Origin: Candidatus Doudnabacteria bacterium
GTDB taxonomy: Bacteria; Patescibacteriota; Doudnabacteria; UBA920
Reading direction: 5' to 3'
DNA length: 64,000 bases
Assembly (NCBI GenBank): GCA_963837465.1
Contig: CAWINB010000001.1
Coordinates: forward strand, 501,646-565,645
Shown here: positions 18,268-59,738 of the stretch, piece after piece
Layout of the letters: every line of letters begins with the position of its first letter
How positions within the stretch are numbered: the first letter of the stretch is position 1
Notes under the pieces: model-generated
Told to the model about the DNA's origin: nothing
The model's input: only the letters and a program-made list of their open reading frames with translations
Databases searched by the model: none
Position numbers and translations under genes: made by a program

Positions 18268-18432
18268 AGGGGAAACTCACATATTATTTTTTACATAATA
18301 CACGAGTTAAACCAAATATTCAGTTGTCAAAGATCAATCTTGAGTGTTTCAACCCAAGCGCCAGGCGGCTCCTGTTAGGGCAACAGGGCTTTGTTCCCCC
18401 GGTGTCCACCTGGCGTTTAAGTTGAATAAGTC

Positions 18433-18478
18433 GGTCGGGAGAATAAAAGATTGTGCAAATCTTTTATTCTCCCACTCC
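18433..18478. other. perfect 16-bp inverted repeat within the intergenic region of the operon
   Basis: GGGAGAATAAAAGATT-gtgcaa-ATCTTTTATTCTCCC. No U-tract follows on either strand. Confidence 0.5.
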
Positions 18479-18581
18479 GAGTGCTAAACACCGAGATTCA
18501 CGCCTTGCTCGGTTTGGCGACAGGGTTCATGCCTTCTCCTCTATGGCGATCGGTTTTAAATAAAACCGGCAAAATTTTCTT

Positions 18582-21823: not shown

Positions 21824-21843
21824 GACAACTCCTTACCCGAAAT

Positions 21844-21972
21844 TCAGACCCTCGGGACCGGGGGAAAGTAAGCCAATACTACGCCACCTTCGGCATTGAA
21901 CACTAGCCGGGGCGGATTATTTTTGAGCTGTTCCAAGGCGGCTTCAAAAGCCGTCTCGTCTTTCTCTTTCAT
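21844..21972 (-). CDS. possible small ORF (42 aa)
   Basis: Hand-translated MKEKDETAFEAALEQLKNNPPRLVFNAEGGVVLAYFPPVPRV, with an AGAGGTG RBS. Weak evidence. Confidence 0.2.
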   Translation of the reverse strand: MKEKDETAFEAALEQLKNNPPRLVFNAEGGVVLAYFPPVPRV

Positions 21973-22027
21973 GACACCTCTTGTCCGATATTTCCATTTG
22001 AACCGTCGGACTGCGGGTCAATGCCCT

Positions 22028-28122: not shown

Positions 28123-28258
28123 AAAGATATTATAACTTATTTTGGCTATAAATTAAATAGAAAACTAGGGCTTTTCCCTAGCTTTCAGGGGTCTAGACAA
28201 GGCACGTGGGTTGCGTCATCAATGTGTTGTAAGCCTTAATCATAGAAAGGAGCAACAT

Positions 28259-37118: not shown

Positions 37119-37130
37119 TAAGTAAGTTAA

Positions 37131-39398
37131 TTATAATTTTTTTATATCGTTCAGCGCTTGCTCAATATTTCCATTATGCACTAAGAAAAAGTGTAATTTG
37201 TTTTTGCCCAACGACTGCCATGTTTCGGCCAGCGCAACTTTGTAAGCTGTGTCCTCGTTGCTAATCCGATCCTCGCCTTTCCATTCCAGTGCCAGAATAT
37301 TACCCTTTTTAGTTAAAGCTACAAAGTCCGGATAAAACTTATTTTTCTGCCAACCGTGCAAGAAAAACGGGTCCTTCTTTTCCCGGTTCCTAACCCAAAA
37401 TTCAATATTGGGCAGCGTATCCAAATCCAGCCTCTCTATGAAATTCAGCTCTTCCTTGTTTAATTTATCAATTTTGCGGTAATAATTTTTATTGAACTCC
37501 TGCGGTATTTCCTGCTCTATCGTGATGGTTTCCGGAAACGGCTCAAATGGCTGGGCTGTAATCTTTTTCTTGGCCAGCAAGGAGTCAAAACTCTTTTTGG
37601 CATAGGCGGCCAGAATGCCATCTATAACTGAAGCCAGCTTATCACAAAAGACATAGCGATTGACGGATAGCTCGGCCAGCGAGCGATGTTTAAGCTGATA
37701 GGTCAAAGCCTTTTCAATAAATTTGACCTTGTCGGATTGCTCAAGTAGGGTAAAGCGCAATTTTTTATCAAGCCATAGCATCAATTCCTGCTGCGAGGAT
37801 TTTCTAACGCTGTAAGGCAAGTTTAAAATCTGCTGCCGCCCTTTGATCCAGTGATCGCCCTGAATATCAATAACTGCGCGGCCGTCGCTGTCATAGTGAA
37901 TTTCAAAATCAAATTCGGCATTTTGTTTTGCCAACTCAAAATTATCACCGATCAACTCTTCAAAGGTAAGCGGCTCGTCGCCTAATGCCATCATAGGAAC
38001 GGCGAAATCTTTTTTGACAGCGCGTTCAATTACCCGGGGATCCTTTTGGTCTTTATCGGAAGCGTTAAGTATGTCAGCTTTGCTGTAACCGTTGTTTTCT
38101 AGGCCACCGATGATTTGGGAGGCCGCTTCATTAAAGTTACGAGCCGAGGCAAACACATAGCAGCGGTTTAACTCTTCCTGCTGTTTGCTCTTGGCATAAG
38201 GCATACGGATGATGCGGCCGATAATCTGTTCTACGGCTATCTTTGCGCCAATGTTGGCCAGAGAGATAAGCACATAGGCATAGGAGCAGTCCCAACCTTC
38301 AGCCAGAGCATTAACGGTAATAATGTAACGGATGGGGCATTTTTTGCTGAATAAATCTACTCCCTCTAACCCGTTCTTTTCCGATACTTTTATAGCTATT
38401 TCCTCTTCAGCTATTTTAAGTTTAAGCAAAAAATCCTTGACCTGCTCAACGGTTACATTGTTTTGGGTTTTGCTATTGGGCTGGGCTTGAATTAAAGCGA
38501 TGGGCCGAATGTATTCACCCTTGTTTTTCTTGGCAGTTTTTTCTAACTCTTCCCTCTGATGTAGGCCGCGCTGGAGAGCCTGCTCCCACTGGTTGGCACT
38601 TTCTAGCACAATGGGAATTTTAACCATCTGTTCTTCTTTTAGCTCTCCGGCGCCAATATTCACTAAAATATTGCTGCCGGAACGAGGGGTGGCAGTATAC
38701 TCAATAATAAAGTCTGGGTTTAATTCCTTTAAAAAATCAACTGATAGCTGAGTTTGGGTACGATGGCCTTCATCGATAACAACCAGCGGGTTATTAAGCC
38801 GGATGACATTTGCGAGAGAATAGACTACTGTGCCTTCCTCGTCTTTTTCAAGCCCCGAGTCGTCGCTGATATGCTGGAAATGATCTAGTAAATTGCCGTT
38901 CTCCTGATAAACTTTATATTTATTCTGTAAAGTTTTTTCTTTGCGGAAAGCCTCCAAGCTGGAAACAATTATGCAAAGGTTATCTTCTACATCTTCCTTG
39001 CGGATTCGCAACGCCTCTTCATTGGAAAATATCCGGATACCATTTTCAAAGGTTTCATCTAAAATTTGTCGGTGTGGATCATGCCGGTCTTTAAACTTTT
39101 TTAGGGTTTGGGTCTTAATGGCTTCCGACGGCACGAACCACATAACAATACCGCGCTCCATTTTGCTCTTTAACACGGAACTCATAATCTCGCCAAGTGC
39201 ATTACAGCCGACAAGGGTCTTGCCGCCGCCCGTGGGGATCTTTATGCAGACGTAAGGAACTTCGCCAAAAAATTCAGAGTTGTATGACTGCTCGGCGATT
39301 TCAATAAAGGCACGCTTGGCGCTACCTACCTCTTGCAGAGTTTTTAGATAAGCCCCAAGTTTGTCGAGCGCAATTTGTTGATATTTTTTAAGTTCCAT
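37131..39398 (-). CDS. res: Type III restriction enzyme Res subunit (SF2 helicase-nuclease)
   Basis: Walker A PTGGGKTLV, DEGH box (VVIDEGHRTQ) and helicase motif VI. Confidence 0.85.
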   Translation of the reverse strand: MELKKYQQIALDKLGAYLKTLQEVGSAKRAFIEIAEQSYNSEFFGEVPYVCIKIPTGGGKTLVGCNALGEIMSSVLKSKMERGIVMWFVPSEAIKTQTLKKFKDRHDPHRQILDETFENGIRIFSNEEALRIRKEDVEDNLCIIVSSLEAFRKEKTLQNKYKVYQENGNLLDHFQHISDDSGLEKDEEGTVVYSLANVIRLNNPLVVIDEGHRTQTQLSVDFLKELNPDFIIEYTATPRSGSNILVNIGAGELKEEQMVKIPIVLESANQWEQALQRGLHQREELEKTAKKNKGEYIRPIALIQAQPNSKTQNNVTVEQVKDFLLKLKIAEEEIAIKVSEKNGLEGVDLFSKKCPIRYIITVNALAEGWDCSYAYVLISLANIGAKIAVEQIIGRIIRMPYAKSKQQEELNRCYVFASARNFNEAASQIIGGLENNGYSKADILNASDKDQKDPRVIERAVKKDFAVPMMALGDEPLTFEELIGDNFELAKQNAEFDFEIHYDSDGRAVIDIQGDHWIKGRQQILNLPYSVRKSSQQELMLWLDKKLRFTLLEQSDKVKFIEKALTYQLKHRSLAELSVNRYVFCDKLASVIDGILAAYAKKSFDSLLAKKKITAQPFEPFPETITIEQEIPQEFNKNYYRKIDKLNKEELNFIERLDLDTLPNIEFWVRNREKKDPFFLHGWQKNKFYPDFVALTKKGNILALEWKGEDRISNEDTAYKVALAETWQSLGKNKLHFFLVHNGNIEQALNDIKKL

Positions 39399-39399
39399 A

Positions 39400-40815
39400 T
39401 TAGTAAACCCTTACCTCGTAAGGGATTTGTTTAAAGGTTAAATTATATTGGTCTAAAATTGTGTCATTGATCAGGCACTTGTCGGCGTAGACGACTTTTT
39501 GAAAGCCATCCTTTTTAAGTTTATTTAAAAACGACTTGCCTAAAATATTATTGCCCTTTTCCTTGTATAACAGGTAATATTCCGTTTCGTTAAACTGCCC
39601 AACAAAATTTCCACTAATCTCTTTTGGATTTATGTTAGTCTTGGTCTCGGTAAAATAAATATACGTGGCCAACTGGTTAAATTCGCATTCTTCATCAATC
39701 TGCCCCTGCTCGTTAAACAGCGGTTTACCAAGTTCGCAATATTCAAAGCCCTCTTTGTAGCCGTATTTTATGATAGCGCGTTTTACCCGTTCGGCCGTGA
39801 TATCTTTAGCAACCGCATCTTCCATTTCCACCATAATAAATTTACGATTGCCGCCATCTTCCTTATTTAAATCTAAAACCGCGTGGCCGGTGGTGCCGGA
39901 TCCAGCAAAGGAATCTAATATTAAGTCAGCATCTTTAGTTGCCAATTGTAGCATCCTTTTAATTAAACTCACTGGTTTTGGATAATCAAATGGCTGGTTC
40001 TCACCAAATATACTTTTTAGATCTTTTTTTGCTGAATCATTCGAACCAACCTCGCCGTGCTTCCATAAAGTTTTTGGCTTTAAGCCTTGTTGAACCTCCG
40101 TTAAGAATCTTTTCAAATTTGGAGTTGAGTCGCCGCTTTTTCCAAACCAAACCCTGTTTTCTTTTATTAAAATTAGCATATCTTCCTGTGCGTAAATCCA
40201 GTGCTTGTTAGGCGGCAAATTCCATACTCGTCCAGTTACAGAAGACTTGATTGGATAGCGGCCATTTTTTCGTTCCTCTTTTGCATACAAAGGAATTGCT
40301 TTCCAAGGCCCTCTAGGATCTTTGTCGGGATTAGAATACCGGGCGTCGGCCTCTTCCGACCTGGGCAATAAACCTAGTGGCTTAGTTTCTATTGATTTGG
40401 CATAAACAAAAATATACTCATGGCAATCGGAAATCATTTTTGAGTCATTTTTTGTTGTGTACATTTTTTCCCAAACTACCTGGGCAATAAAATTTTCCGC
40501 CCCGAAAATCTCATCCAACAATAACTTTAAATTGGCACCTTCCTTATCATCAATTGAAATAAAAATCACCCCCTCATCTGCCAATAAATCTCTTAACAAT
40601 TTCAGTCGGGGATACATCATACACAGCCATTTATCATGGCGATTTAAATCCTGCGACTCCGCGCCCACTACTTTGCCCAGCCATTTTTTTATTTTTGGCG
40701 AGTTAACTTTATCGTTATAAACCCAGCCTTCGTTGCCGGTATTATAGGGCGGATCAATGTAGATGCATTTTACTTTGCCACCATAAAAAGGCATCAGAGC
40801 CTTTAGGGCTTCCAA
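39400..40815 (-). CDS. mod: Type III restriction-modification Mod subunit (N6-adenine DNA methyltransferase)
   Basis: IYIDPPYNTG (DPPY) and SAM motif LDSFAGSGTTG. Lies 2 nt upstream of res. Confidence 0.85.
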   Translation of the reverse strand: MEALKALMPFYGGKVKCIYIDPPYNTGNEGWVYNDKVNSPKIKKWLGKVVGAESQDLNRHDKWLCMMYPRLKLLRDLLADEGVIFISIDDKEGANLKLLLDEIFGAENFIAQVVWEKMYTTKNDSKMISDCHEYIFVYAKSIETKPLGLLPRSEEADARYSNPDKDPRGPWKAIPLYAKEERKNGRYPIKSSVTGRVWNLPPNKHWIYAQEDMLILIKENRVWFGKSGDSTPNLKRFLTEVQQGLKPKTLWKHGEVGSNDSAKKDLKSIFGENQPFDYPKPVSLIKRMLQLATKDADLILDSFAGSGTTGHAVLDLNKEDGGNRKFIMVEMEDAVAKDITAERVKRAIIKYGYKEGFEYCELGKPLFNEQGQIDEECEFNQLATYIYFTETKTNINPKEISGNFVGQFNETEYYLLYKEKGNNILGKSFLNKLKKDGFQKVVYADKCLINDTILDQYNLTFKQIPYEVRVY

Positions 40816-46495: not shown

Positions 46496-48277
46496 ATGGA
46501 AAATGGTAACAAAAAAATTAAATATTTCCTTTATTGCCGAAAAAGTTCCGAGGCCGAGGATCGGCAAGTCGCTTCCATCGAAGCGCAGATTGACGAGTTG
46601 GAAAAACTTGCCCAAAATTTGAAACTGGAAATTGTCGACATTATTAGGGAAACCAAATCAGCCAAAGCCCCTGGCAGGCAACTATTCAATAGCATGATCG
46701 CACGGATTGATAAAGGCGAAGCCCAGGGAATAATTTGTTGGAAACTTGACCGCCTGTCCAGAAATCCTGTTGACGGAGGTTTAATAAGCTGGATGCTCCA
46801 GCAAAACACAATAAGACACATTCAAACGTATGGTGGCAGTTACTATCCGACTGATAATGTCGTAGTTATTGCCGTCGAACTTGGTGTCGCCAACCAGTAC
46901 GTGCGGGACTTGTCAGTAAACGTTAAGCGCGGTTTTAGGAAAAAACTACAGGACGGAAATCCGACAGGGATGGTTCCCCAAGGTTACTTAAATAGTATGA
47001 CCTTGGAGCGAGGGTCCAACATAACTCTCAAAGATCACGAGCGCTTCCCGTTGGTGCGCCGGATGTGGAGCATGATGCTCAGCGGCAATTATAATCCGCA
47101 AGAGATTCTAAAGATTGCAAATGGCGAATGGGGCTACAAAACACTGAAGCGAAAGAAACTCGGCGGCAAAGCGCTGTCACGCAGCTCCATTTACCAAATG
47201 TTCACAAACCCTTTTTATTACGGCTTTTTACTGGAACACAAAACCGGCGAGTTACACCAGGGTAGCCACGAGCCGATGGTCAGCAAAGAGGAATTCGACA
47301 AGGTGCAGATCTTATTAGGCAGCAAGGGAATGAAACGCGCTCCGCACACTAAGCAATTTGCCCATACCGCCCAAATTGGATGTGGCACCTGTGGCTGCCA
47401 AATTTGCGCCCATGAAAAGTTTCAGATTATTTGCAGCGTTTGTAAATTTAAATACGCCTATAACCTAGATATCCATCCTTGTTGTCCCAACTGCAAAACC
47501 AAAGTTAAGGATATGAAAAAACCAAAGATCCTGCACTACGTTTATTACGGCTGTAGCCGGCGCAAAAATACCGAAACCTTTTGTTGTGCGGAACGCTCAA
47601 TTCAACAGGAAGAGCTGGAGGGGCAAATTAAAAAATATTTGTCGACAATAACCATCAGACAGGAATACGTGGATTGGGCACTGAAGCATTTAGAGGAATC
47701 AAAAAGCGATAAGGCCCAAACTAAAGTGTCCATAGCGGAGTCACTGGAAAAGGCTTTGGCTGATGTTGAAAAAAGATTGGACGGCCTAGTAGAGATGAGG
47801 TCGTTAAAAGAGCTTAGCCAAGAGGAATTCCTCGCGAGAAAACAGCCGCTGGATGCCGAACGGCAGCGAATCAGGGACTTAGTGGCAAAACAAAAGAAGA
47901 GCGGACAGAATGGCAATTTTCAAACGACAAAGGCGCTGACGTTCGCCGAGCGGGCGCTGCGGGAGTACGATAAAGGCGACCTTAACAAGAAACGGGCTAT
48001 AGTTGCCGAGTTAGGTTCGAACCTAACTTTATCCGCCAAAAACCTTAGTGTTTCCGCCGAAGAACCGTTCCAAATCCTAGTTGAGGCGACAAAGTGTATA
48101 GCCGACTTAAACCCTACGTTCGAACCTGCAATTCAAGCTGTGAATAAAAGAGAAAAGCACGCTTTAGGCGTGCTTAATCCCACTTGGCTCAGCGGCTGGA
48201 TTGCGGTCGCCCCTTTGGGCAACTTTCGGAGGCTTTTTGGAGGCCTGCGCTGGGCACTCGGGTCAGAGGTTTTTTGA
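46496..48277 (+). CDS. large serine recombinase
   Basis: Catalytic YCRKSSEAEDRQVASIEAQ, a recombinase domain, and an extended Cys-rich zinc ribbon (CGTCGCQICAHEKFQIICSVC...CCPNC). Confidence 0.85.
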   Translation: MENGNKKIKYFLYCRKSSEAEDRQVASIEAQIDELEKLAQNLKLEIVDIIRETKSAKAPGRQLFNSMIARIDKGEAQGIICWKLDRLSRNPVDGGLISWMLQQNTIRHIQTYGGSYYPTDNVVVIAVELGVANQYVRDLSVNVKRGFRKKLQDGNPTGMVPQGYLNSMTLERGSNITLKDHERFPLVRRMWSMMLSGNYNPQEILKIANGEWGYKTLKRKKLGGKALSRSSIYQMFTNPFYYGFLLEHKTGELHQGSHEPMVSKEEFDKVQILLGSKGMKRAPHTKQFAHTAQIGCGTCGCQICAHEKFQIICSVCKFKYAYNLDIHPCCPNCKTKVKDMKKPKILHYVYYGCSRRKNTETFCCAERSIQQEELEGQIKKYLSTITIRQEYVDWALKHLEESKSDKAQTKVSIAESLEKALADVEKRLDGLVEMRSLKELSQEEFLARKQPLDAERQRIRDLVAKQKKSGQNGNFQTTKALTFAERALREYDKGDLNKKRAIVAELGSNLTLSAKNLSVSAEEPFQILVEATKCIADLNPTFEPAIQAVNKREKHALGVLNPTWLSGWIAVAPLGNFRRLFGGLRWALGSEVF

Positions 48278-48514: not shown

Positions 48515-51172
48515 ATGAGTTCTGAACAAAGGGATGGTCAACATCCTATGTTCGATAAAATAGAGCGGGCCGCAGTAGTCGAAGAGCCTCATCCCAAGCC
48601 TGAAGTTCAAGGCAATCCTGAAGCCAGGGCGGAAGAGCTTTTTGCTTTATGGCAGGATTTTCGCCGCGCTAGCATCGACTCACATATTAAACGTCGTAAG
48701 TATAAAAAAGAGCATCCGACGGAAGAATTTAATGACCCAAACGGCGACAAATTAAACAAAGTTCGCTCGGCTCTTTCGGAACGCTGGAGCGACCCCGCTG
48801 TCCAGGCTCTATTTAAAAAAAGAGTCGGCGAAGCAGCTGTGGAATGGGGCAAAATTAAGAAGCCGTTAAAGGAATACAAAACTATCCAAAGCGGCCTGCA
48901 AGCCTCTCAAGCAGACTTAGAAAAACTATACCGGGAAGTTTTTGAACACCGGGGCAAAGACCCGGATGAGTTAACGCAGATCCAGATTGCCGAACTTTCC
49001 GCCCAAGCTGACTCCCAAAAAAACCAAGTCGAAGCAATGGAACAAAGCAGCCCGGAATTGTCGGCGCAGCTTTCTTTTGAACGGTTAAAAGATTATCAAA
49101 AACAATTGTCGCGGGACGGTTTTATCTGGACGGCATCACGGGAAAAATATTTTGAAAAAATTATTGACCATTTGGTTGTAGTAAACCAAAATCGGCCCCT
49201 GCTTTTAGCCGGGGAAACCGGCACCGGCAAAACCCGATTGGCGCGTGCCGTATCCAAAAGGCTTACCGGCAAAAATCCCTATGAAGTCGGTGAAGAAGCC
49301 AAGACGGATATTCGCCCCTTATTAGGTTCACGGGCGATTGATGAAAAAGGTTCTTATATCAATTACGGCCAACTGGGACAGGCCCTAAGCGGCAAAGAAA
49401 CTTCGCGGGATACCAAACCCGGAGCCGGCGGTATTTTTTATATGGACGAAATGAACGGCTATCCGGGCGACGCCTTGCGTTCACTGGTTAAGCAGATTTC
49501 CGGCAGAAGGCCCGGGGAAGAAATCACTTTTGCGGCCTGGGCCGGACAGAAAGAAAAGCTGTCGCAGGATTTTGGTTTTTTAGGCTCGGCTAATTTGCCT
49601 TCCGAAAAGCATCCTGACCGCGCTGATTTGCCTGTTGAAGTTGCCCGCGAACTGGGGTCTCTTGAAATTGATTATCCTCCGCAGTCGGCCGAAGACCCTG
49701 AACTCTACGAAATGATGTTGGCTGGTTTGATGGATCAAAACGGCAGAATTCGCGTGCCGCAGGAAGCCTTGGCCCCTGAATACGAAGATGTCGTTGATGC
49801 GGCCACCAAAGAAAAACATAAGCGATTAAAAACCGAACCCGAATCCGGCGGCGCATTGTGGCGGTTTGCCAACTTGGTTGCCGATGTTCAAAAAAGCTAT
49901 AAAGGCCAGGACAATGCCTTAACGTCAACTTTAAGGGACGCATCTCATTTGCGGGCGGCGGTTTTGGATCCCGGCTTGGTGCTGTCGTGGCTGGCGGCTT
50001 ACAGAAAAGCGGCAATGCGTCGTAATGTTGATTTGCAGACATTCTTGGGTGAAAAACTGGAAACCTGGGCGGGACAGAAAATTTATCCCGAGGAAGACAG
50101 AAATTTGCTTAAACAATTCGTTGTTAAATTTAACCTTGAAACTCCCGACCGTCCGGTTAACCATAAACAAACAATTTTATCCCCGGCGGAAATAGGCAGG
50201 CTGTCGCCGCGCGTGCCCAGGGAAGCCCAAATCATGGAAAACGAGGCACGCCCTACCGAAGCCATGGCAATTTTGGAAAATGGCACCCAGGTTTTGTACA
50301 ACCTGGAAAGCAAGAACCCGGCAAGCGGCAGCCGTGTCGTGAAAAAGGGCGATCGCAGCCGCCAGACTTTTGTGTTTAAAGGTTTTGTTATAGGAGAGCC
50401 GCGGGATCATGCTTTAATAGAAAGCTCCACCGGCAAGCTGGAAACCGTCAGCCCTTCTGACTTTGCAAGGAATTGGGAAGCCGCCTCTTTAGGTTTCAGT
50501 GAAAAATTTGAAGGGCGGGAAATTAAACTGGATGTGCTGGAAGCCAGGGCGAAATCCGAGAAGTTTTATAAAGAACATAATTTAAGCGAATTTGCGGCCA
50601 ACTTACCCAAAGATATCAGGTTCTCCCCGGATAGCGAAGCCAAGATCAGGGAAGCTTTAAAAATGGGTTTTGACAGGGCTATGGTTTTACCCGCAACTTC
50701 GGTTCAGGGCCAGTATCAAGACAAGCTGTTGACTGAAATGCAGGCTGGCTACGCCACTGCCGACCAATTCTGGTCTGAAAAACCTAAAACCGTGGCTACT
50801 CGAAACCGTCCGGCTAAAGCCTACCTGTTTCTTTACAGCAGCGGAGCGATACCGCAGGAAACCAAAAATTTAAACCAGACTCAAACCGAAGCGCTATTCC
50901 GCCAAAAACACTGGAATGGCTTAACACTGGCCGAATTCCGCCTGACCGAGCGGCTGCATTTTGAAGCTGACGGAAACCACAATTTCCATAGCTGGAATAA
51001 CGACGCCAAGCTTTCGAACTGGACTAGGCTTTTAGATAGCGCTGATGCTTCTGGTGCCGCGGCTGCCCGCTGGAATCCGGACAATTCGCGCGTCTATTTC
51101 TACTGGCGCGATCCGGCGTCTGTCCATCCGAGGTTGGGCGCCCGTCCCGCGGTCGTTGTAGAAATCCTTTAG
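48515..51172 (+). CDS. DGR target protein: AAA_5/MoxR-like ATPase with C-terminal variable (CLec/FGE-like) region
   Basis: Walker A LLAGETGTGKTRLA. The C-terminal 40 codons coincide with the VR, whose differences from the TR fall on TR adenines. Confidence 0.8.
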   Translation: MSSEQRDGQHPMFDKIERAAVVEEPHPKPEVQGNPEARAEELFALWQDFRRASIDSHIKRRKYKKEHPTEEFNDPNGDKLNKVRSALSERWSDPAVQALFKKRVGEAAVEWGKIKKPLKEYKTIQSGLQASQADLEKLYREVFEHRGKDPDELTQIQIAELSAQADSQKNQVEAMEQSSPELSAQLSFERLKDYQKQLSRDGFIWTASREKYFEKIIDHLVVVNQNRPLLLAGETGTGKTRLARAVSKRLTGKNPYEVGEEAKTDIRPLLGSRAIDEKGSYINYGQLGQALSGKETSRDTKPGAGGIFYMDEMNGYPGDALRSLVKQISGRRPGEEITFAAWAGQKEKLSQDFGFLGSANLPSEKHPDRADLPVEVARELGSLEIDYPPQSAEDPELYEMMLAGLMDQNGRIRVPQEALAPEYEDVVDAATKEKHKRLKTEPESGGALWRFANLVADVQKSYKGQDNALTSTLRDASHLRAAVLDPGLVLSWLAAYRKAAMRRNVDLQTFLGEKLETWAGQKIYPEEDRNLLKQFVVKFNLETPDRPVNHKQTILSPAEIGRLSPRVPREAQIMENEARPTEAMAILENGTQVLYNLESKNPASGSRVVKKGDRSRQTFVFKGFVIGEPRDHALIESSTGKLETVSPSDFARNWEAASLGFSEKFEGREIKLDVLEARAKSEKFYKEHNLSEFAANLPKDIRFSPDSEAKIREALKMGFDRAMVLPATSVQGQYQDKLLTEMQAGYATADQFWSEKPKTVATRNRPAKAYLFLYSSGAIPQETKNLNQTQTEALFRQKHWNGLTLAEFRLTERLHFEADGNHNFHSWNNDAKLSNWTRLLDSADASGAAAARWNPDNSRVYFYWRDPASVHPRLGARPAVVVEIL
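51048..51169 (+). repeat. DGR variable repeat (VR)
   Basis: 122 bp matching the TR at 51412-51533 with 14 mismatches, 13 of them at TR adenines. Confidence 0.8.
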
Positions 51173-51411
51173 TCTTTGTATTTTAATGTTTTCTTTTTTT
51201 ATTTTTGTTTTTATCCTCGAAAATTTTTTATTTTAACCTTTCGGCTAATGAAACCACTCTGCAAAGAGATTGGTTCGCCGACTCTCAATCCATAAACGGA
51301 TTGAACAAGACAGTAAACAACGACGTTCCTTGTGAGAATACCGGTCAGGGATAGCTCCGCGGAGTGTCCCGCGCGTTATGGATGGATCAAGGAATACGGG
51401 GCGGGTGGGCC

Positions 51412-51533
51412 CTTCTGGTGCCGCTAATGCCAACTGGAATCCGGACAATTCGCGCGTCAATTTCAACTGGAACGATCCGGCGAATGTCAATCCGAAGTTG
51501 GGCACCCGTCCCGCGGTCGTTGTGGGCATAGGG
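51412..51533 (+). repeat. DGR template repeat (TR)
   Basis: Non-coding copy with AAC-rich codon positions (ANANWNPDNSRVNFNWNDPANVNPK if translated). Confidence 0.8.
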
Positions 51534-51534
51534 G

Positions 51535-51903
51535 TTATCTGTTACCCGGCTGGTTGCGGATGTATTTGATCCAACCGCTGAGCATTTTGCTTATCTCCTC
51601 CAAATTGGCCATCAGCTGGTAAAATTGGGTGTTGACGATAATGTTGTTTTCACAACACAGCCGTACCAGCAATTTGCATAACTCGCATTTGGAATAAGCT
51701 TTCAGCAGGCCGCTTTCCCGGAGCGGCAGGGGCATGGCATTGGCCTCAAAAATATATTCCAGTATGGCTAAAAGGGAACGATCCAGCACCTGGCCCAAAG
51801 TATAACGCAACGGTTTGGGAAAGTCGGCCAGCAGGGGCAAAAGGATTTGATAGGTTTTATAAGTTTTAACCACCACCGGCGGTTCAAAGGAAGTTTGGGT
51901 CAT
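51535..51903 (-). CDS. avd: Avd-like four-helix-bundle accessory protein (IVS/Avd family)
   Basis: FPKPLRYTLGQVLDRSLLAILEYIFEAN matches the Avd/IVS pattern FPKxExYxLxxQxxR...NIxEG. On the opposite strand to the TR and RT. Confidence 0.7.
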   Translation of the reverse strand: MTQTSFEPPVVVKTYKTYQILLPLLADFPKPLRYTLGQVLDRSLLAILEYIFEANAMPLPLRESGLLKAYSKCELCKLLVRLCCENNIIVNTQFYQLMANLEEISKMLSGWIKYIRNQPGNR

Positions 51904-52902
51904 ATGGACTTATTGCCTTTTAATAAATTTGCAAAAGTTGAAAATCTTTATGATGCTTGGGATCGCTTCACGCCCGGCAAACGGGAGCGCCCGGATGTGG
52001 TGGCCTTTGAGCGCCGCTTGGAAAACCAACTGCAACAGCTTTCGGAGGATTTAAGCGGCGGGCTTTATGTGCACGGGGACTATAAAAGTTTTTTTGTGCG
52101 CGACCCGAAGTTCAGGATTATACACAAAGCCAAAGTCAGAGACCGGGTTGTGCATCAGGCGCTTTACAGCGTACTCTACCGGCTGTTTGACCGGCGGTTC
52201 TATTTTGATTCGTATTCGTCCAGGGTTGGCAAAGGTACCCAGGCGGCGGTGCTCCGAGTCTGGGAATTTATTCGAAAGGAAAGCAGTAATTTTAACCAGC
52301 AGGCTTATGTTTTGCATGGCGATGTTGATGATTTTTTTGCCAGCGTTGACCACCAGATTTTATTAACGTTTATCCGCAAACGCCTTAAAGAGCCAAATTA
52401 TTTGCGGCTTTGCACGACCATAATTGACAGTTTCCATGTCACCCCGGGCAAAGGAGTGCCGCTGGGCAATTTGACCTCGCAGATTTTCGCCAATATTTAT
52501 CTGCACGAATTGGATTACTTTGTGAAGCAGACTTTGGGCGTGGAAAAGTATGTCAGGTACAACGACGACTTTTATTTAGTCAGCAAAGATAAATCCGAAC
52601 TTTCCGGCTTGAGCCTGACCATCAGGCGGTTTTTAGCTGAAAAGTTAACGCTGTCTTTGCCGGAGGAAAAAACAATACTCAGAAGCCTAAACAACGGCGT
52701 GGATATTTTGGGGGTGGTGGCTTTTCCTTACGGGCTGGTGCCAAGAAAAAGAGTCAGGACGGCGGTTTTGGAAGTGGCTGCGCAAGCCCGAAAAACAGGA
52801 TATAATAGCTATGTGGTCAAACAGCTGAATTCATATATTGGTTTGCTGGGAATTTCCAAGAGTTTTTTACTGAAAGAACGCTTGCGTTTAAGCATCGGTT
52901 AA
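51904..52902 (+). CDS. DGR-type reverse transcriptase
   Basis: LGNLTSQIFANIYL (the DGR-specific SQ motif), catalytic YVRYNDDFYL, and motif A LHGDVDDFF. Confidence 0.85.
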   Translation: MDLLPFNKFAKVENLYDAWDRFTPGKRERPDVVAFERRLENQLQQLSEDLSGGLYVHGDYKSFFVRDPKFRIIHKAKVRDRVVHQALYSVLYRLFDRRFYFDSYSSRVGKGTQAAVLRVWEFIRKESSNFNQQAYVLHGDVDDFFASVDHQILLTFIRKRLKEPNYLRLCTTIIDSFHVTPGKGVPLGNLTSQIFANIYLHELDYFVKQTLGVEKYVRYNDDFYLVSKDKSELSGLSLTIRRFLAEKLTLSLPEEKTILRSLNNGVDILGVVAFPYGLVPRKRVRTAVLEVAAQARKTGYNSYVVKQLNSYIGLLGISKSFLLKERLRLSIG

Positions 52903-52914
52903 TTATTTTAGTTT

Positions 52915-55491
52915 ATGGGTCCAGAAACAAGAAATTTTGAGCAGCCGGAGGCAGGAAATTTTGACGCTAAAGCCGCTTTGCAGAAAGCGCGAGGCCGACT
53001 TATCGGGCAGGCTTTAAAATCGCGCGAAGGTATTGCCGGTCTTAAGGCTTGGCGGTCTTTATCTAACAGAAGCAAAGGGGTACGGCAGGCCAGAACTGTG
53101 TTTGAAAACCTTTCGGCTTACGACTTAGCCGTTTCCGGCAACCCCGAGCAAGCCGGGGCGTTTGGCGCGGAGATGGCCAACAAAACAAGTTTGGGAAGCG
53201 GCAGAGTACAGGAACTCCTGTCCTGCTTTGAAGCCAAGCAATTGGGAGCGACATTGCCGGAAGTCCGGCCTGAAGTCCGGCAAATTTTCCAGAATGTTTT
53301 AAAGAGCAGGTCCACGGAGGGCGAGGTTGACGTCGCCCAAGTCATGTCTTCGGCCAACGTGTCTTTAGGCGGCAAGTTCCAGTGGTTTGAATCCCGCTTG
53401 GCTTCGGCCATAGATTTTTTGGAGCGCAAGGATTTGGAAGAGGCCAGAGCCGAAGCTGAAAAGCCAATACCTCCGGAAATCCAAGAACAGAAAGAGCAGA
53501 GCCCACAAAGCAATCTGCCTCCGCCTCAGGAAGACAGCCTGACGCCCAGTATGGACGAGATGGAAACCTCAAAGGAAAACGAGCCCGGAGCATATTTTAA
53601 AGTGCGGCCTTTTTACGGCGGCTATTATCGCGGCGATGATTTTGACATATGGGACGAGAAGGTCATGAAGTGGAAAAAGTCGGCAAGTATGCTCTCTGAA
53701 TTTACCAGCCCTGCCATAGAAGAGAAAAGTCGTAAGGTCTTTTCCGGCAGCGTCCAAGGCGGCAGACGCACGGTATTGCCCATGCCTTATGGTTTTGCGC
53801 CGGATGTTTCCAGTCTGCGGACCCAGGGCAACGAGACTGTAACCATATTGGCTGACGGACACGGCAGTTTTGTTGTTGACGCTGCCAGAGCTTCGGGAGT
53901 GATTACCTTTTCTCTGGAAATAGCAAAAACCCAAGAAAGTTTAAGGGAAGCAGCGCGGGCAAAATCCAAAGCCGCGACTTATAAATTTTCTCCCGGTACT
54001 GATGCTAAACTTGCAGAGATAACTCAAGGCAAACATTCCATTATGGATCAGGCGCGCTCTGCTAAGGCTTATGTTAAGAAGCTCTTAAAATATTCCAATG
54101 ATTCAAGCTTTAACAACATATACAGAACTGGCGATCCGGCAGGTTATTTTTCAAGAATTGAACAGCACGAAGAGGCTGACTGCGATGTGGCCAACACTTA
54201 TTTCGTGGCTTTGCTGCGGCGTCTTGGAATGGAGGCAAGATTAGTTTCCGGCCATTACGTCAAAGTTAAGGATAAGCAGAATGCGGCGGTTATTTCTTCG
54301 GGTACCGGCCACGCTTGGGCGGAAGTTTGGGATGGGCGGGCTTGGCAGCGCCTTGATGCCACGCCGCCGGGCGATCCTAATATGGACGATGAGGAAATAG
54401 ACGAGCAAAGCTCTGACGCGGCTATGGAAGGCGACTTTGGCGAACAGGAGGCTCCGGAGTTAAGCGATGAGGAATTGGAGCAATTAATCACTGAAGCCCA
54501 AGAAGCTTTGGAAAAGAAGGAACGGGAACCGGAAGAATTAGCGGCTTTAAACTTTGCCGAACAAGCGGGTTGCAGCCCTGAAGAAGCCAAGCAGATACTA
54601 AAACGTATTACTGAAGCGCGAGAGAAGAGGGACAAACAGGGAAGGAATATCAGGGCAAGATTATTGGCTGAATGGCAAAAAATAATCCAGGATAATTTGA
54701 TTGACAGAACCCGCTACACCGCGCCTATACGAATGTCCAGAGGGGAAGAATTGGTTGACCCGGTGGAAACGGTATTGGACTTGCGCGCCGGTGAAGCTGA
54801 TCCGACCGGTTTTTCCAAGCATGAACGTAAGACTGAAAAGGAACAGATTTACGGCGGCTTTGACGCTTTTCTGGTAGTGGACAAAAGCGGCTCTATGGCA
54901 GAAACTGACGGCTCAAGCGGCAGGCCAAAGTGGGAAGACCAGCAGGTCTTTAGCTTTTTGCTGATGGATTCAATGTACGCCGCCGCGCAGGAATTTAAGC
55001 GGCAGAAAATAAAGCTGATTTCGCCGATGGATGTCAGGGTGGCTTTAGTCAGTTTTAACGCCGGGGGCGGCAGGGTTGAATTGCCGCTGGGCACCGCTTG
55101 GGGGCCTAAGGAACAACTGCAAGTTTGGAAAGCATTGCAGGAGAATGTGGGCGGAGGCACCCCGGATCATTTGGGCTTACAAACCGTTAAGAAGATGATT
55201 GAGCAAGATGCCGTTAACTTGCAACAAAGTAAACAGCGGCTTCGTTTGGTATTGGTATCCGCCGATGGCGGCAGCGACAGCGTACCCGCCACTATCTCGG
55301 CCAAGGAAGACTTAAAGTCAGCGGGCGTGGTGGTGAAAGCCGCGGGTATCGGTTCCGGTGCCAGCCAGGTAATTGCCACTTATACGCCGGACGGCAGCAA
55401 TTTGGCCAGCTTTGCCGATGCTCCGGATTGGGCGGCCGAAGAAATCATTACTCAGGCCAAACTTTTAAATCCGAAAAAAGTTAAAAGGTAA
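52915..55491 (+). CDS. vWA-domain protein with transglutaminase-like cysteine protease region
   Basis: Transglutaminase-like triad elements (EADCDVANTYF, GHAWAEVWD) and a C-terminal vWA MIDAS motif (FLVVDKSGSMAETDG). Confidence 0.75.
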   Translation: MGPETRNFEQPEAGNFDAKAALQKARGRLIGQALKSREGIAGLKAWRSLSNRSKGVRQARTVFENLSAYDLAVSGNPEQAGAFGAEMANKTSLGSGRVQELLSCFEAKQLGATLPEVRPEVRQIFQNVLKSRSTEGEVDVAQVMSSANVSLGGKFQWFESRLASAIDFLERKDLEEARAEAEKPIPPEIQEQKEQSPQSNLPPPQEDSLTPSMDEMETSKENEPGAYFKVRPFYGGYYRGDDFDIWDEKVMKWKKSASMLSEFTSPAIEEKSRKVFSGSVQGGRRTVLPMPYGFAPDVSSLRTQGNETVTILADGHGSFVVDAARASGVITFSLEIAKTQESLREAARAKSKAATYKFSPGTDAKLAEITQGKHSIMDQARSAKAYVKKLLKYSNDSSFNNIYRTGDPAGYFSRIEQHEEADCDVANTYFVALLRRLGMEARLVSGHYVKVKDKQNAAVISSGTGHAWAEVWDGRAWQRLDATPPGDPNMDDEEIDEQSSDAAMEGDFGEQEAPELSDEELEQLITEAQEALEKKEREPEELAALNFAEQAGCSPEEAKQILKRITEAREKRDKQGRNIRARLLAEWQKIIQDNLIDRTRYTAPIRMSRGEELVDPVETVLDLRAGEADPTGFSKHERKTEKEQIYGGFDAFLVVDKSGSMAETDGSSGRPKWEDQQVFSFLLMDSMYAAAQEFKRQKIKLISPMDVRVALVSFNAGGGRVELPLGTAWGPKEQLQVWKALQENVGGGTPDHLGLQTVKKMIEQDAVNLQQSKQRLRLVLVSADGGSDSVPATISAKEDLKSAGVVVKAAGIGSGASQVIATYTPDGSNLASFADAPDWAAEEIITQAKLLNPKKVKR

Positions 55492-55624: not shown

Positions 55625-55733
55625 TGTCGCTGAGGTTTTGCCGGTAGGTGGAGATACAAAAAGGGTCCCCCACCTACCGGCGGCAACCTTTCGGATGCCG
55701 TCCACCTGTCCTTGCGAACAGGCACCTCAGCGA
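55625..55733. other. nested-helix structured element in an intergenic region
   Basis: Outer pairing GTCGCTGAGGT ... ACCTCAGCGAC encloses GCCGGTAGGTGG ... CCACCTACCGGC (11 bp). GTCGCTGAGG occurs a third time at 55761. Confidence 0.35.
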
Positions 55734-56444
55734 CGAGTGGCGGTTGGGAGACCGTCTTTATGTCGCTGAGGATGAAGCCATATCCGAAATTAGATTTCGG
55801 GGTTAGGCGATGGTGAAATGTGCTTATATTATATATAAATTTTGCGGGTTAGGCAACGAGATTGGTTGTATTAAAAATTACCAGAATTGGTAGTGCTTCC
55901 GTTGGACGACTGTGCCAGTGTTACGGACTTAAGTAGTATTTTAACATTCAATAGTGATACCTAAGCGGCGCCAAAAAAATTTAGCAATTATTGACTGTGG
56001 AATTTAAACTCTGGCTATGCCCACGATTCCTTAAATGCCCTGTAGGTCTTAGTGTTCAACCTTATTGCCCTAATCCTGTGAATTGCCAGTTTGAGGTATC
56101 ATCTGGCCTAAGGCAACGGGCTTACTTCAGGTATCATGTGGGATGGCACAAGTCTTAAGTTTGACAGTCAAATTAAAAAGAGTTACTATATTTATATACA
56201 GCCATCGTGAACTAGAAAGTGTATGGTTTAGGTTTTCCAAAAGAGTCCCGGAGTCGAAACCTCTTCGGGAAAATTCGGCCATATTGCTCTAAAACGGAAA
56301 ATAATAAAAAATAAAATATCCAATTAATATTTAAAGTTTGATGGATTAATAAAACTTAATAAGACCATCCAATCAGAATGGACGGCAGTTTTTTGCTATG
56401 CGGAAAACTAAAACAATCAAGTATCAAAATTAAAGTTATAACCC

Positions 56445-57788
56445 ATGAAAGAAAAATTATTAAGCGAGCTTAAGTTGAAAGTTGAGTATGTGTCAGTGGC
56501 TGCGCTGAAACCCAGCGAGTATAATCCACGCAAATTCTCCAAAGAGCAGTTTGAGCAGCTAAAAACTAGCATTAAAGAGCACTCCTTGGTAGAGCCTTTG
56601 GTGGCGAACTCCGCGCCGAATAGAAAGAACATTTTAATAGGAGGACACGGTAGGTTAAAAGCCGCCAAGGAATTGGGGCTTAAAACCGTGCCGGTGGTTT
56701 ACGTCAGCATTCCCGATATCGAGACCGAGAAGGATCTAAACGTGAGACTGAATAAGGCGGTCGGAGAATTTGATCTGGAGTTGCTGTTAAAGAATTTCAG
56801 CGAGGAATTTTTGTCCGGAGTTGGATTTTCCAGTGAGGAATTGGATAAAATTTTTGCTGTTGAGGAGATACCGGAATTATTTGATCTGGAAAAAGAACTT
56901 AAGAAACTCAATATTCAAAAGGTCAGCGTTAAACAAGGTGACGTCTACGAGATTGCCGGTTGTCGGGTTATGAACGGTAACAGTACCGTTGAAGCCGATA
57001 TGATAAAACTCATGGACGGCCAGAGGGCGGATATGTGTTTGACGGACCCACCTTATTTACTAGACTACCTACACGGCAAAAAGAAAAAAGACGCTACTAA
57101 AGGTTTTGGCCTTAAGCGTGATCGTACCTATCTAGGGACTACGGAACTGCCGGAAAATTTTACCGACCTGTGGATGGCTAGTATCGCCAAAATCCAAAAG
57201 CCGGATTTCTCTATTATAGTTTATGAGAATCCAAAGAACCTGCGAACCATCTGGAACGCTTTAGAAAAGTATTGGAAATACCGTAACACTATAATTTGGC
57301 ATCTGCCAAATCGGGTACAGGGCTTCTCCGCTAAGTATAAGTTTTTCAACAAATGGGACTTCGCCATGGTCGGTACCTCCGGTCAGGTGTCCTTAAACGA
57401 CGAGCCGGAAAAGGATGCGCTATTGCAAGAGGAGTATGAGTCCGCTTTATTTGCCACCTCCGGCAAGCCGCATTGGGAGTCTTATGCCAAGGGCAAAAAG
57501 TATTGCCCGACTGACTTTATTGAGTATAAAGCGTCGGATAAAAAATCATCGGGCCAAGGAATAATCTTTGGCACTAAGCCAGTGGAGATTCTGATTCCAT
57601 ATATTAAGGTGCTGACTAGGCGTGATGAATTGATAGTGGAACCGTTCGGGGGGTCGGGGTCAACAGCGGTAGCAGCCATAAAAATGAAGCGCCGTTGTTA
57701 CCTGATGGAAAAATCTAACGTCTACACGGAAGTCATATTGAACAGACTTTCGAAGTTAACCGGGCAAAAGCCAAGGAGGGTGGCATGA
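56445..57788 (+). CDS. ParB-like nuclease domain fused to DNA methyltransferase (copy 3)
   Basis: ParB motif ILIGGHGRLKAAKELG, catalytic CLTDPPYLLDYL, and EPFGGSGSTAVAA. Confidence 0.85.
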   Translation: MKEKLLSELKLKVEYVSVAALKPSEYNPRKFSKEQFEQLKTSIKEHSLVEPLVANSAPNRKNILIGGHGRLKAAKELGLKTVPVVYVSIPDIETEKDLNVRLNKAVGEFDLELLLKNFSEEFLSGVGFSSEELDKIFAVEEIPELFDLEKELKKLNIQKVSVKQGDVYEIAGCRVMNGNSTVEADMIKLMDGQRADMCLTDPPYLLDYLHGKKKKDATKGFGLKRDRTYLGTTELPENFTDLWMASIAKIQKPDFSIIVYENPKNLRTIWNALEKYWKYRNTIIWHLPNRVQGFSAKYKFFNKWDFAMVGTSGQVSLNDEPEKDALLQEEYESALFATSGKPHWESYAKGKKYCPTDFIEYKASDKKSSGQGIIFGTKPVEILIPYIKVLTRRDELIVEPFGGSGSTAVAAIKMKRRCYLMEKSNVYTEVILNRLSKLTGQKPRRVA

Positions 57789-58225
57789 GCCGGAAAAATT
57801 ACCAACAGGCAAAACAAAAAGCGGCCGTTATCGAACAGCTAAAAAAATTTCCGATTGTTCAGTTAGCCGTTCAGAAGGCCGGAGTATCCAGACCCAGTTA
57901 TTACCAATGGCGGAAACAGGATGCGGAATTCGCTAAAACCGCGGATGAGGCCATGGCCGAAGGCATCCTGTTTATTAACGACATCGCCGAAGGTAATATG
58001 ATATCTCTGATAAACGAAAAGGACATGCGAAGCATTCGTTTTTGGCTCACGCACCGTCATCCCGTCTATGCCGCAAAACTGCAGCTCGAAGGGAAGTTGG
58101 AGTTATCGGACGAGGCTTTAAGTAGCGAGCAGCAGGAAATCGTAGACAGGGCCTTGGGATTGCTCGCCGGGGATAAAAGCCAACTCGGCGAACAAAAAGG
58201 AGGCAACCATGAACCTCACGCCTGA
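57785..58225 (+). CDS. terminase small-subunit-like HTH protein (copy 3)
   Basis: GVSRPSYYQWRKQDAEF HTH signature. Confidence 0.55.
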   Translation: MSRKNYQQAKQKAAVIEQLKKFPIVQLAVQKAGVSRPSYYQWRKQDAEFAKTADEAMAEGILFINDIAEGNMISLINEKDMRSIRFWLTHRHPVYAAKLQLEGKLELSDEALSSEQQEIVDRALGLLAGDKSQLGEQKGGNHEPHA

Positions 58226-59738
58226 CATCACTGAGCGGATGGGTAAAGATGCCGGTATCCGCCGCGCCATAACAAAAAAGAGCCATGAAGCTTTCTTTGC
58301 CTTCTATCTGCCGCATTACTTAGAGTACCAAAGCGCATTGTTCCATCACGAGCTGTTTGCCGCTACCGAAGACAGGACTGCTAAACTTTTGGTCGTCCAA
58401 GGTTTTAGGAACAGCGGCAAATCAACAATATTATCTTTGTCTTTTCCCCTTTGGCTCGCCATAAGCGGGCAGGCGCAGGAAATCATCATCATTTGCAAAA
58501 ACCAGATGTTGGCCAGACATGCGATGAAAAATATTCAGGCAGAATTAGAAGAGAATGAACAGCTAACCAAGGATTTTTATCCCTTTGATTTTAGGGAGGA
58601 TGCCTCGGACGCTTACATCGTAAGCTTAAAACGCTACCGCGCCGAAATCGTGGCCGTTTCCCGCGAGCAAAGCGTGCGCGGCTTAAAACATCGGCAGTAT
58701 AGGCCACAGGCTATTATTATTGACGATCCGGATGACATCGGGTCGGTAAAAACTTTGGAAAGCCGGGAGAATACCTGGCAATGGATGATGCGGGATATTG
58801 TGCCATTGGGGGATAAAAATACCAGAATTGTGGTTATCGGTTCGCCGCTTCATGGCGATTCGCTGATTATGCGCCTACACGATAAGATCGAAAGCGGACA
58901 GATGCGGGGACTGTCCATGCGCATTCCCATTCTTGACCAAAACGGCAAACCCGCTTGGCCTGCCAAATTTCCGACTCAGAAGGAAATCCAAGAGGAGAAA
59001 ATGAAGATGGATGAGATCAGTTGGAACAGGGAAATGATGCTGTTGCTTACTCCTGAGCTCGGACAGCTGGTCACCTTAGAGGACATAGTTAAGTATAATA
59101 ACCTACCTCCCCGTGCGAGTACTTGCGGCTATATTGCCACCTGGTCGGGAGTGGACTTCGCCATCGGCCAGAAGCCGGGCAGCGATTATACGGCTATCGT
59201 GACAATACAAATACATGTCGTTAATGGAAAGCTGAAAATTTACGTCCTGCCGAACCCCGTTAACCGCCACTTGGATAATTATGGCAATATCGCCGCCATG
59301 AAGCAGGTAATCGACAATGCCAAACAAACAGGCCACAGCAAAATGTTTATGGAGGCCAACTTATTTCAAGTTTCGTTTTACCAGCAGATGATCGGCGCTG
59401 GCTATAACCAGATAGCGCCAGTTACGGTCAGTGGTGATAAGCTAACAAGGTTACAACCGACAGCTATGATGATCAAGGATGGTCGGCTACTATTTCCCAA
59501 AGAGGGCTGCCGTGACCTCATTTTCCAACTGGTAGATTTTGGCTCGGCACGCAAAGACGATTTGGCGGATGCCTTGAGCTTGGTCGTCAATGAAGCTATT
59601 AACGAACATAATAAAAATCTCTCGCTGTACGGTTACTTGGATTGGGTAGAATCTAACGGCGGACCGTATATGGACATTGACGGCAGCAAACCGACCAGGA
59701 GATTTCAAAGCCTCATCCCGGAAGGCCAAGAAGAATGA
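58209..59738 (+). CDS. terminase large-subunit-like protein (copy 3, canonical Walker A)
   Basis: GFRNSGKST (GxxxxGKST), Walker B IIIDDPDD, and nuclease-region similarity to copies 1 and 2. Confidence 0.7.
   Translation: MNLTPDITERMGKDAGIRRAITKKSHEAFFAFYLPHYLEYQSALFHHELFAATEDRTAKLLVVQGFRNSGKSTILSLSFPLWLAISGQAQEIIIICKNQMLARHAMKNIQAELEENEQLTKDFYPFDFREDASDAYIVSLKRYRAEIVAVSREQSVRGLKHRQYRPQAIIIDDPDDIGSVKTLESRENTWQWMMRDIVPLGDKNTRIVVIGSPLHGDSLIMRLHDKIESGQMRGLSMRIPILDQNGKPAWPAKFPTQKEIQEEKMKMDEISWNREMMLLLTPELGQLVTLEDIVKYNNLPPRASTCGYIATWSGVDFAIGQKPGSDYTAIVTIQIHVVNGKLKIYVLPNPVNRHLDNYGNIAAMKQVIDNAKQTGHSKMFMEANLFQVSFYQQMIGAGYNQIAPVTVSGDKLTRLQPTAMMIKDGRLLFPKEGCRDLIFQLVDFGSARKDDLADALSLVVNEAINEHNKNLSLYGYLDWVESNGGPYMDIDGSKPTRRFQSLIPEGQEE

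Follow-up and report, generated by a model that had tools for sequence, protein, structure and literature searches.

A diversity-generating retroelement module of the Candidate Phyla Radiation that joins a variable MoxR-class ATPase to a transglutaminase-vWA partner

Introduction

What would a bacterium belonging to the Candidate Phyla Radiation (CPR), a group in which diversity-generating retroelements (DGRs) are unusually abundant, gain from one that rewrites the tail of an ATPase? The question is raised by a 64,000-nucleotide stretch of a Candidatus Doudnabacteria genome (assembly GCA_963837465.1, contig CAWINB010000001.1, positions 501,646 to 565,645 of the forward strand), hereafter the window, in which four genes and one repeat pair occupy positions 48515-55491. 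An original prediction, made from the sequence alone, had assigned these elements to a DGR, its ATPase target and a partner gene, and all of them were confirmed where it had placed them. As detailed below, together they form a self-contained four-gene module of CPR/Patescibacteria. The elements of the cassette are as follows.

48515..51172, forward strand: DGR target gene, 885 aa (Pfam AAA_5 at residues 228-363, E 1.4e-10; Walker A motif GETGTGKT)
51048..51159, forward strand: variable repeat (VR), 112 nt, coding for residues ~845-882 of the target
51412..51523, forward strand: template repeat (TR), 112 nt, intergenic, with 23 adenines and with AAY codons at the variable positions
51535..51903, reverse strand: bAvd-like accessory variability determinant, a four-helix bundle of 122 aa (Pfam PF22296, E 3.4e-10)
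51904..52902, forward strand: DGR reverse transcriptase (RT), 332 aa (RVT_1, E 1.3e-17; PADLOC RT, E 1.5e-47)
52915..55491, forward strand: partner gene, 858 aa (Transglut_core PF01841 at residues 367-482, E 1.9e-14; VWA/VWA_2 at residues 652-820, E 3e-6)

A complete retroelement directed at one protein

The VR makes up the final 112 nt of the target gene ahead of its last four codons, and is 88% identical to the TR across 112 nt. Adenines of the TR account for 13 of the 14 mismatches, nearly all of them at codon positions 1-2 of AAY codons; 13 of the 23 TR adenines are thus substituted in the VR, and the sole change at any other base is a silent T->G. The GC-rich 24-nt 3' end of the repeat (VR copy at 51136-51159), similar in kind to an initiation of mutagenic homing (IMH) sequence, is invariant and present in only two copies in the window, where none is expected by chance. 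A search for a hairpin 3' of the VR found none, and no further targets of this TR were found within the 64 kb. A promoter and terminator scan of the cassette returned fewer sites than were obtained from shuffled controls.

The likeliest start of the RT is the ATG at 51904, the mechanically delimited open reading frame (ORF) beginning at a TTG at 51847 and homologues measuring 331-335 aa, and its translation contains the motifs LGNLTSQ and YNDD, presumably DGR signatures. The bAvd match scores just over the gathering threshold of its family; the opposite-strand orientation of the gene recurs in homologous loci, as does, across CPR loci, the layout of target, TR, reversed avd and RT. With an adenine-biased TR/VR pair, a DGR-type RT adjoining the TR, an Avd, and a VR lying within a C-terminal lectin-type fold, the locus contains a complete DGR, which rewrites the last ~38 codons of the 885-aa protein. 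Computation shows the TR to be copied with adenine-specific errors into the VR, changing about a dozen codons on the lectin-like binding face.

An indirect sign of current diversification comes from a close relative. A Doudnabacteria scaffold from Rifle (L010) matches a second assembly (L001) at 100% identity for more than 7 kb of the cassette, the VR excepted: at L010 positions 8167-8177, aligned with L001 positions 10535-10618, a scaffold gap of N stands in place of the 84 nt at the centre of the VR. Such a gap probably reflects collapse of the assembly at a VR that is heterogeneous in the population.

The diversified protein

The target was originally described as an NTPase carrying the motif GETGTGKT, and this description holds, with an AAA_5 domain in the body of the protein and the VR in its C-terminus. 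Four regions can be distinguished: an N-terminal helical domain (~1-223), a MoxR-class AAA+ core and lid (~229-555), a small beta domain of Tudor/SH3-like type (~580-675), and a C-type-lectin-like domain (~675-885). An AlphaFold2 model of residues 1-560, built from a 36-sequence alignment (pLDDT 87.1, pTM 0.85), comprises a helical N-domain of ~220 residues, the AAA+ core and a helical lid region, with beta-hairpins at 271-284 and 336-348, where a helix-2 insert and a pre-sensor-1 hairpin are located in such cores. By this model the target is a member of the MoxR clade of AAA+ ATPases, whose core carries both of these elements, the closest folds being MoxR, dynein and midasin. Its closest solved relatives are CbbQ and NorQ, at a sequence identity of only 17-18%, and a PDB sequence search with the ATPase profile returned marginal P-loop matches only. 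Within the homologue alignment, the catalytic motifs G233-T240, D311/E312, N360 and R369 (Walker A and B and sensor 1 among them) are invariant or nearly so; R369 is the putative arginine finger.

For the C-terminal domain, predicted at the outset to adopt a CLec/FGE-like fold, a lectin fold is accepted as the best reading; the check was passed with a moderate signal, provided by one method together with the VR pattern. Among 12 close homologues, the highest entropy (2.4-3.1 bits) falls at residues matching A-containing TR codons, and the interleaved scaffold residues A851, W853, P855, V860, L874 and G875 are invariant. Pfam, searched at E <= 10, places no FGE or lectin family in the C-terminal domain of any of 15 homologues, and a Foldseek comparison of the C-terminal region with the PDB yielded nothing below E 0.07, its only matches being Tudor-like and confined to the middle beta domain.

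The family to which the ATPase belongs is small, with 174 clusters (50% identity) at E <= 1e-30 and 473 at E <= 1e-10 among 1.84 billion representatives. All relatives that can be recognised come from Patescibacteria/CPR, namely Doudna-, Uhr-, Lipton-, Magasanik-, Kaiser-, Davies- and Moranbacteria.

The partner protein

The 858-aa partner consists of a conserved N-terminal region, a transglutaminase-like core, an acidic linker (~487-530) and a vWA domain with a metal ion-dependent adhesion site (MIDAS). The Cys-His-Asp core and MIDAS vWA domain ascribed to it initially are both borne out by conservation across 18 homologues. Specifically, the triad C423/H466/D481, which lies inside the Transglut_core domain as is characteristic of the transglutaminase-like superfamily, is invariant down to 25% identity; in the MIDAS motif D656-x-S658-x-S660...D784 no variation is seen at D656, S660 or D784, and conservation of S658 is 90% or more. 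Additionally, the vWA part of the protein matches solved vWA domains (E 4e-9). In neither the ATPase nor the partner is any stretch hydrophobic enough for a signal peptide or transmembrane helix (maximum 19-residue Kyte-Doolittle means of 0.99 and 1.27). Both are accordingly predicted to be soluble, cytoplasmic proteins, the partner with a catalytically intact Cys-His-Asp domain and a MIDAS-competent vWA domain.

Linkage of ATPase and partner across the CPR

How general this association is was addressed by a scan of GTDB, at one genome for each species, using the transglutaminase-vWA alignment, which gave 72 loci, essentially all from CPR, 67 of them at family level. Six-frame ORFs of each locus were searched with profiles for the ATPase, the lectin module, the RT and Avd, and adenine-biased repeats were sought. 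The ATPase adjoins the transglutaminase-vWA gene in 48 of the 67 family-level loci; the remaining 19 lack it, and each has less than 3.5 kb of sequence on one side, at a contig end. The original prediction depended on the vWA protein not being found apart from the ATPase in homologues, and among the assessable loci not one is unlinked, the two genes standing together in 48 of 48. A genetically coupled vWA/MIDAS co-factor, one of the marks of the MoxR clade, is thereby present throughout.

An RT or Avd is found in 30 of the 48 linked loci, a VR/TR pair with an adenine bias of at least 75% in 24, and a VR placed 3'-terminally in the ORF of the ATPase in 16. The VR is carried either by the ATPase or by a lectin protein standing alone; the vWA protein never contains it. 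Across the 48 linked loci no third conserved neighbour gene was found, and the pair occurs in either order. Five arrangements recur.

Arrangement 1: ATPase with VR, TR, avd, RT, partner (as in the window)
Arrangement 2: ATPase and separate lectin targets, followed by avd, RT and partner
Arrangement 3: partner, ATPase with VR, TR, avd, RT
Arrangement 4: target, TR, avd, RT, partner, short ATPase
Arrangement 5: partner and ATPase with no DGR within 5-10 kb (for example L052, L071, L075)

From these recurring arrangements the conserved core can be recognised as the ATPase/transglutaminase-vWA pair, to which the DGR and lectin module are attached in most lineages, the lectin being either fused or separate. 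VR-type tails are present on long ATPases (at least 890 aa) and absent from short ones (~560-800 aa), and the stand-alone targets consist of the same beta-plus-lectin module as the ATPase tail. A Liptonbacteria-type locus, for example, is split into a 590-aa ATPase and separate lectin proteins of ~380 aa, and in more distant loci the transglutaminase-vWA gene comes first, followed by the ATPase. That one module is fused in some lineages and separate in others is, by Rosetta-stone logic, classic evidence of functional interaction.

A duplication of the lectin module was observed in L004/L015, where two tandem genes of ~380-400 aa at 5877-8292 are 99% identical across 300 nt. Both of their C-terminal repeats are VR-like, and the copy at the usual place of the TR, just before avd, is not adenine-rich. 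The idea that the second repeat is a TR situated inside a duplicated target gene was considered and rejected, both copies being VR-like and no A-rich TR being found on the 22-kb locus.

Comparison with known systems

An ATPase as a DGR target, originally set apart from receptor-binding and tail-fibre proteins, belongs to a class already known. AAA-ATPase-lectin proteins have been described as the commonest CPR DGR target, at least in the account given in PMC10907252, citing Paul et al. 2017 (Nat Microbiol). Similarly, in the portion of Wu et al. 2018 (PMC5758913) that deals with CPR, the 'UVR4' targets (category g1, P-loop NTPase) match the Midasin AAA domain and have a VR of unassigned fold, and a single sub-architecture, 'B3', defined by avd/TR order and orientation, makes up 90% of the CPR DGRs in that study. 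The locus in the window, from the same organisms and with an AAA_5/midasin-like ATPase bearing a C-terminal VR, is a member of this group. To the published picture the present census adds the transglutaminase-vWA partner, the fused and split variants, and the versions that lack a DGR. The full-text literature searched on DGRs and transglutaminases, and on von Willebrand domains linked to DGRs of Patescibacteria, a body that did not include Paul et al. 2017, describes no transglutaminase-vWA partner of CPR DGR targets, and the obligate partnership appears to be undescribed.

The original prediction had further matched the locus to proposed NTP-dependent, DGR-diversified conflict or surveillance systems with a vWA partner, and membership of the published DGR-linked MoxR-vWA systems could not be upheld. 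In the passages of Kaur et al. 2020 (PMC7159879) concerned with them, DGR-linked ternary conflict systems of multicellular bacteria are composed of VMAP, MoxR and vWA proteins in the strict order VMAP-MoxR-vWA; the vWA protein carries the DGR-diversified FGS/lectin domain as a fusion, and the third protein, VMAP, is required. MoxR-vWA systems with a diversified lectin domain are likewise reported for the DGR loci of Thiohalocapsa in the relevant part of PMC10907252. The cassette shares with the ternary systems a MoxR-class ATPase, a MIDAS vWA domain, a DGR-hypervariable lectin/FGS sensor and a peptidase-type effector, transglutaminase-like peptidases being found in VMAPs on rare occasions. It differs in having two conserved genes and not three, with no VMAP-C protein as judged from synteny and Pfam only; in a lectin that is either a fused part of the ATPase or a separate protein, and not on the vWA protein; in the union of transglutaminase and vWA in one protein; in its variable gene order; in an ATPase with a long helical N-domain of ~220 residues, the N-terminal WxhapG and PsWRxa motifs of the ternary-system MoxR proteins not being seen in the homologue alignment; and in its hosts, which are ultra-small CPR and not multicellular bacteria. 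The locus thus has its grammar in common with the MoxR-vWA conflict systems while standing outside the VMAP ternary class, differing in the three properties compared for that purpose. CPR genomes were omitted from the multicellularity association test of Kaur et al. 2020 for lack of information, according to the section of that paper describing it (PMC7159879).

Two further groups of systems resemble the cassette in part. CbbQ-CbbO and NorQ-NorD, each a MoxR AAA+ protein with a vWA/MIDAS adaptor, remodel one fixed enzyme (Rubisco and NO reductase, respectively) and, unlike the locus studied here, are without a lectin domain, a DGR or a transglutaminase domain. The MoxR(MRP)-DUF58-transglutaminase operons, known here from the summary of Wong and Houry 2012 in PMC6803598 and including the bifidobacterial PFNA cluster, share the co-occurrence of MoxR, vWA-like and transglutaminase-like genes. 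As portrayed in that summary, they have an AAA_3/MRP-type ATPase, a separate DUF58 gene and a polytopic membrane transglutaminase, and no DGR (PMC6803598), whereas the cassette combines an AAA_5-type ATPase, a single soluble protein uniting vWA and transglutaminase, and an attached DGR.

Genomic surroundings

The cassette, with a GC content of 0.47-0.49, is set in lower-GC DNA. Outside it, the window contains the following features.

46496-48277: large serine recombinase, 220 nt upstream of the cassette (phrog_95, E 3e-58)
56445-57788, forward strand: ParB-N6/N4 methylase fusion, downstream of the partner gene
57785-59738, forward strand: small terminase-like helix-turn-helix protein and large terminase (phrog_38, E 4e-65)
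35415-40815, reverse strand: defence cluster, 8-13 kb upstream of the cassette

Large serine recombinases lie less than 1 kb from the module in five independent loci (the window, L049, L014, L033 and L008) and at 3-8 kb in five more, which suggests that the module travels on, or integrates beside, serine-recombinase elements. The genes at 56445-59738 look like a prophage remnant or the packaging module of another element, the terminase being followed by no portal, capsid or tail genes within the window. Elsewhere in Doudnabacteria, the same cassette is bordered by dnaX and a P-type ATPase, and phage genes are absent. The module is mobile.

The defence cluster contains a HEC-05/GmrSD_N protein of 567 aa (PADLOC E 6e-135), a Type III restriction enzyme of 755 aa (E 4e-92) and a Type III methyltransferase of 471 aa (E 1e-167), and AbiEii genes neighbour two homologous loci. 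Across 18 loci, 125 neighbouring ORFs classified with PADLOC and Pfam include 5 DNA methylases, 4 serine recombinases and 3 leucine-rich repeat proteins, the remainder being largely housekeeping (GatB, PGK, enolase, YidC). Such a neighbourhood has a weak mobile or defence flavour and speaks weakly for a defence role; these are raw counts without a background rate, and no enrichment is claimed.

Several other features of the window were observed in passing. A full-length match to the LOOT RNA (Rfam RF03000) lies at 55679-55809 on the reverse strand, at 49.5 bits against a gathering score of 46.4 (E 3.4e-7), and falls in the ~950-nt gap between the transglutaminase-vWA and ParB-methylase genes. 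Two very large reverse-strand ORFs, of 1000 aa (25120-28122) and 1224 aa (31130-34804), have no Pfam or PADLOC match; on either side of a second large serine recombinase (28211-29644), they border the defence cluster. A second, unrelated MoxR and vWA couple is present on the reverse strand at 15344-18267, comprising a 391-aa AAA_3/AAA_5 ATPase (17092-18267) and, after it, a 628-aa protein (15344-17230) that ends in a VWA_2/VWA_CoxE domain. This couple adjoins a DEAD/Helicase_C protein (18955-21081) within a GC-rich stretch at 14000-22000, the GC content of which is 0.50-0.56, compared with 0.36-0.46 around it.

A putative surveillance machine

The reading of the module preferred here, to which a probability of about 0.5 is given, is one of surveillance, in which an anticipatory sensor (the DGR-diversified lectin), an ATP-gated switch (the MoxR-vWA couple) and an effector (the transglutaminase-like thiol enzyme) would be coupled. 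With CbbQ-CbbO, NorQ-NorD, RavA-ViaA and midasin as models, the ATPase may be pictured as a hexameric ring displaying up to six variable lectin tips, with the vWA/MIDAS domain of the partner docking on the ring or on a ring-bound client; the mechanism of the characterised MoxR-vWA couples is laid out in section 8 of PMC7159879. Binding of a ligand by a lectin tip, most likely a foreign cytoplasmic protein of a phage or mobile element, would lead to remodelling of the complex through ATP hydrolysis. The transglutaminase-like domain might then be freed to cut or cross-link its target, whether this is the captured ligand or a protein of the host. A hypervariable binding site implies changing, probably foreign, ligands, and we infer a defence role. 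A comparable idea, in which the ATPase transduces a signal, has been suggested for CPR ATPase-lectin targets in the part of PMC10907252 devoted to them. The fuller version of this reading, a minimal two-protein anticipatory immune system of ultra-small, non-multicellular CPR in which a DGR-made repertoire of lectin 'paratopes' on a MoxR ring would seize invader proteins in the cytoplasm and pass them via the MIDAS-vWA domain to a transglutaminase-like enzyme for covalent cross-linking or cleavage, is put forward as a tentative and somewhat doubtful proposal.

A number of observations weigh against surveillance. The steps of the mechanism are built on computation and analogy, and both a physical contact between ATPase and vWA protein and the direction in which the signal would run are assumptions. 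Evidence of a defence island is weak, many of the 125 neighbours being housekeeping genes beside the 5 methylases and 4 recombinases. PADLOC has no model for either protein: in PADLOC-DB v2 the ATPase drew weak generic AAA matches only (E >= 8e-6) and the transglutaminase-vWA protein none, so that the pair corresponds to no defence model. Finally, the pairs of L052, L071 and L075, which have no DGR within 5-10 kb, imply that the pair works undiversified, and a general chaperone would fit these loci equally well. The claim that the variable domain senses an invader has the standing of an interpretation, set in neighbourhoods that are mixed, with some methylases and serine recombinases and otherwise housekeeping genes.

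The main rival, considered rather unlikely, is a non-immune, substrate-adaptable chaperone or maturation machine, in which the MoxR-vWA-transglutaminase assembly would remodel or modify proteins, in the manner of the widespread MoxR-DUF58-transglutaminase operons, and the DGR would widen its range of clients; these could be proteins or metabolites, for example host-derived proteins scavenged by an episymbiont. The occurrence of the pair without any DGR in several full-length loci, and with short ATPases lacking the lectin tail, is what such a machine would lead one to expect, as are the housekeeping genes among many of the neighbours; CbbQ and NorQ, the closest solved relatives, are themselves enzyme-maturation chaperones, and DUF58 and transglutaminase genes commonly follow MoxR genes (PMC6803598). 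Hypermutation of a binding site is, however, hard to square with a fixed housekeeping client, and the module, small in family size and patchy in distribution, shifts between unrelated contexts, often beside serine recombinases. A different function for the lectin tip, the binding of variable host-surface ligands by a host-attachment or cell-surface factor of an episymbiotic CPR cell, is considerably less probable. Reviews do predict that CPR DGRs diversify attachment proteins or modulate host interaction (PMC8867640), and lectin-fold DGR targets of phages and Treponema act on surfaces, but an AAA+ ATPase needs cytoplasmic ATP, neither protein has a segment suited to export or membrane insertion, and CPR targets are typically without transmembrane domains (Roux et al.).

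Both remaining explanations are judged very improbable. The position of the cassette between a large serine recombinase (phrog_95) and ParB-methylase/terminase genes (phrog_38) invites the view that it is cargo of a phage or prophage, serving the phage in tropism switching or counter-defence. The target is not a structural protein, however; the ATPase has marginal PHROGs matches (E 3e-4 or weaker, in the AAA/P-loop region only) and the partner none, and the terminase leads into no structural genes in the window. Prophage cargo was rejected as the principal explanation because the same cassette is found in non-phage contexts elsewhere, the Doudnabacteria copy between dnaX and the P-type ATPase among them. 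It might also be supposed that the DGR is decaying or inactive, the VR/TR pair being a historical footprint and the ATPase tail now fixed, as could be argued from L007 and L075, which retain a VR-like tail without an RT or Avd, and from L004/L015, where an A-rich TR was not found. Against this, the RT, Avd, TR and IMH-like end are all intact in the window, 13 of 23 TR adenines are substituted with otherwise one silent change only, and the assembly gap in the close relative is specific to the VR.

Implications

What the analysis adds to systems of a known type is a binary variant composed of a MoxR-class ATPase, a DGR lectin module that is fused or separate, and an invariably linked soluble transglutaminase-vWA protein, at times lacking a DGR and frequently beside serine recombinases. 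With it, an orphan 'variable ATPase' becomes a defined two-component machine whose proposed steps, docking through the MIDAS, ATP-gated activation and a thiol-enzyme output, are testable. As a compact soluble system coupling DGR-programmable binding to an enzymatic read-out, it may also interest protein engineers. If the surveillance reading is true, MoxR-vWA conflict systems extend past multicellular bacteria, and the logic that Kaur et al. tied to multicellularity (PMC7159879) would hold also for the most reduced bacteria known, in a form that is simpler, binary and mobile.

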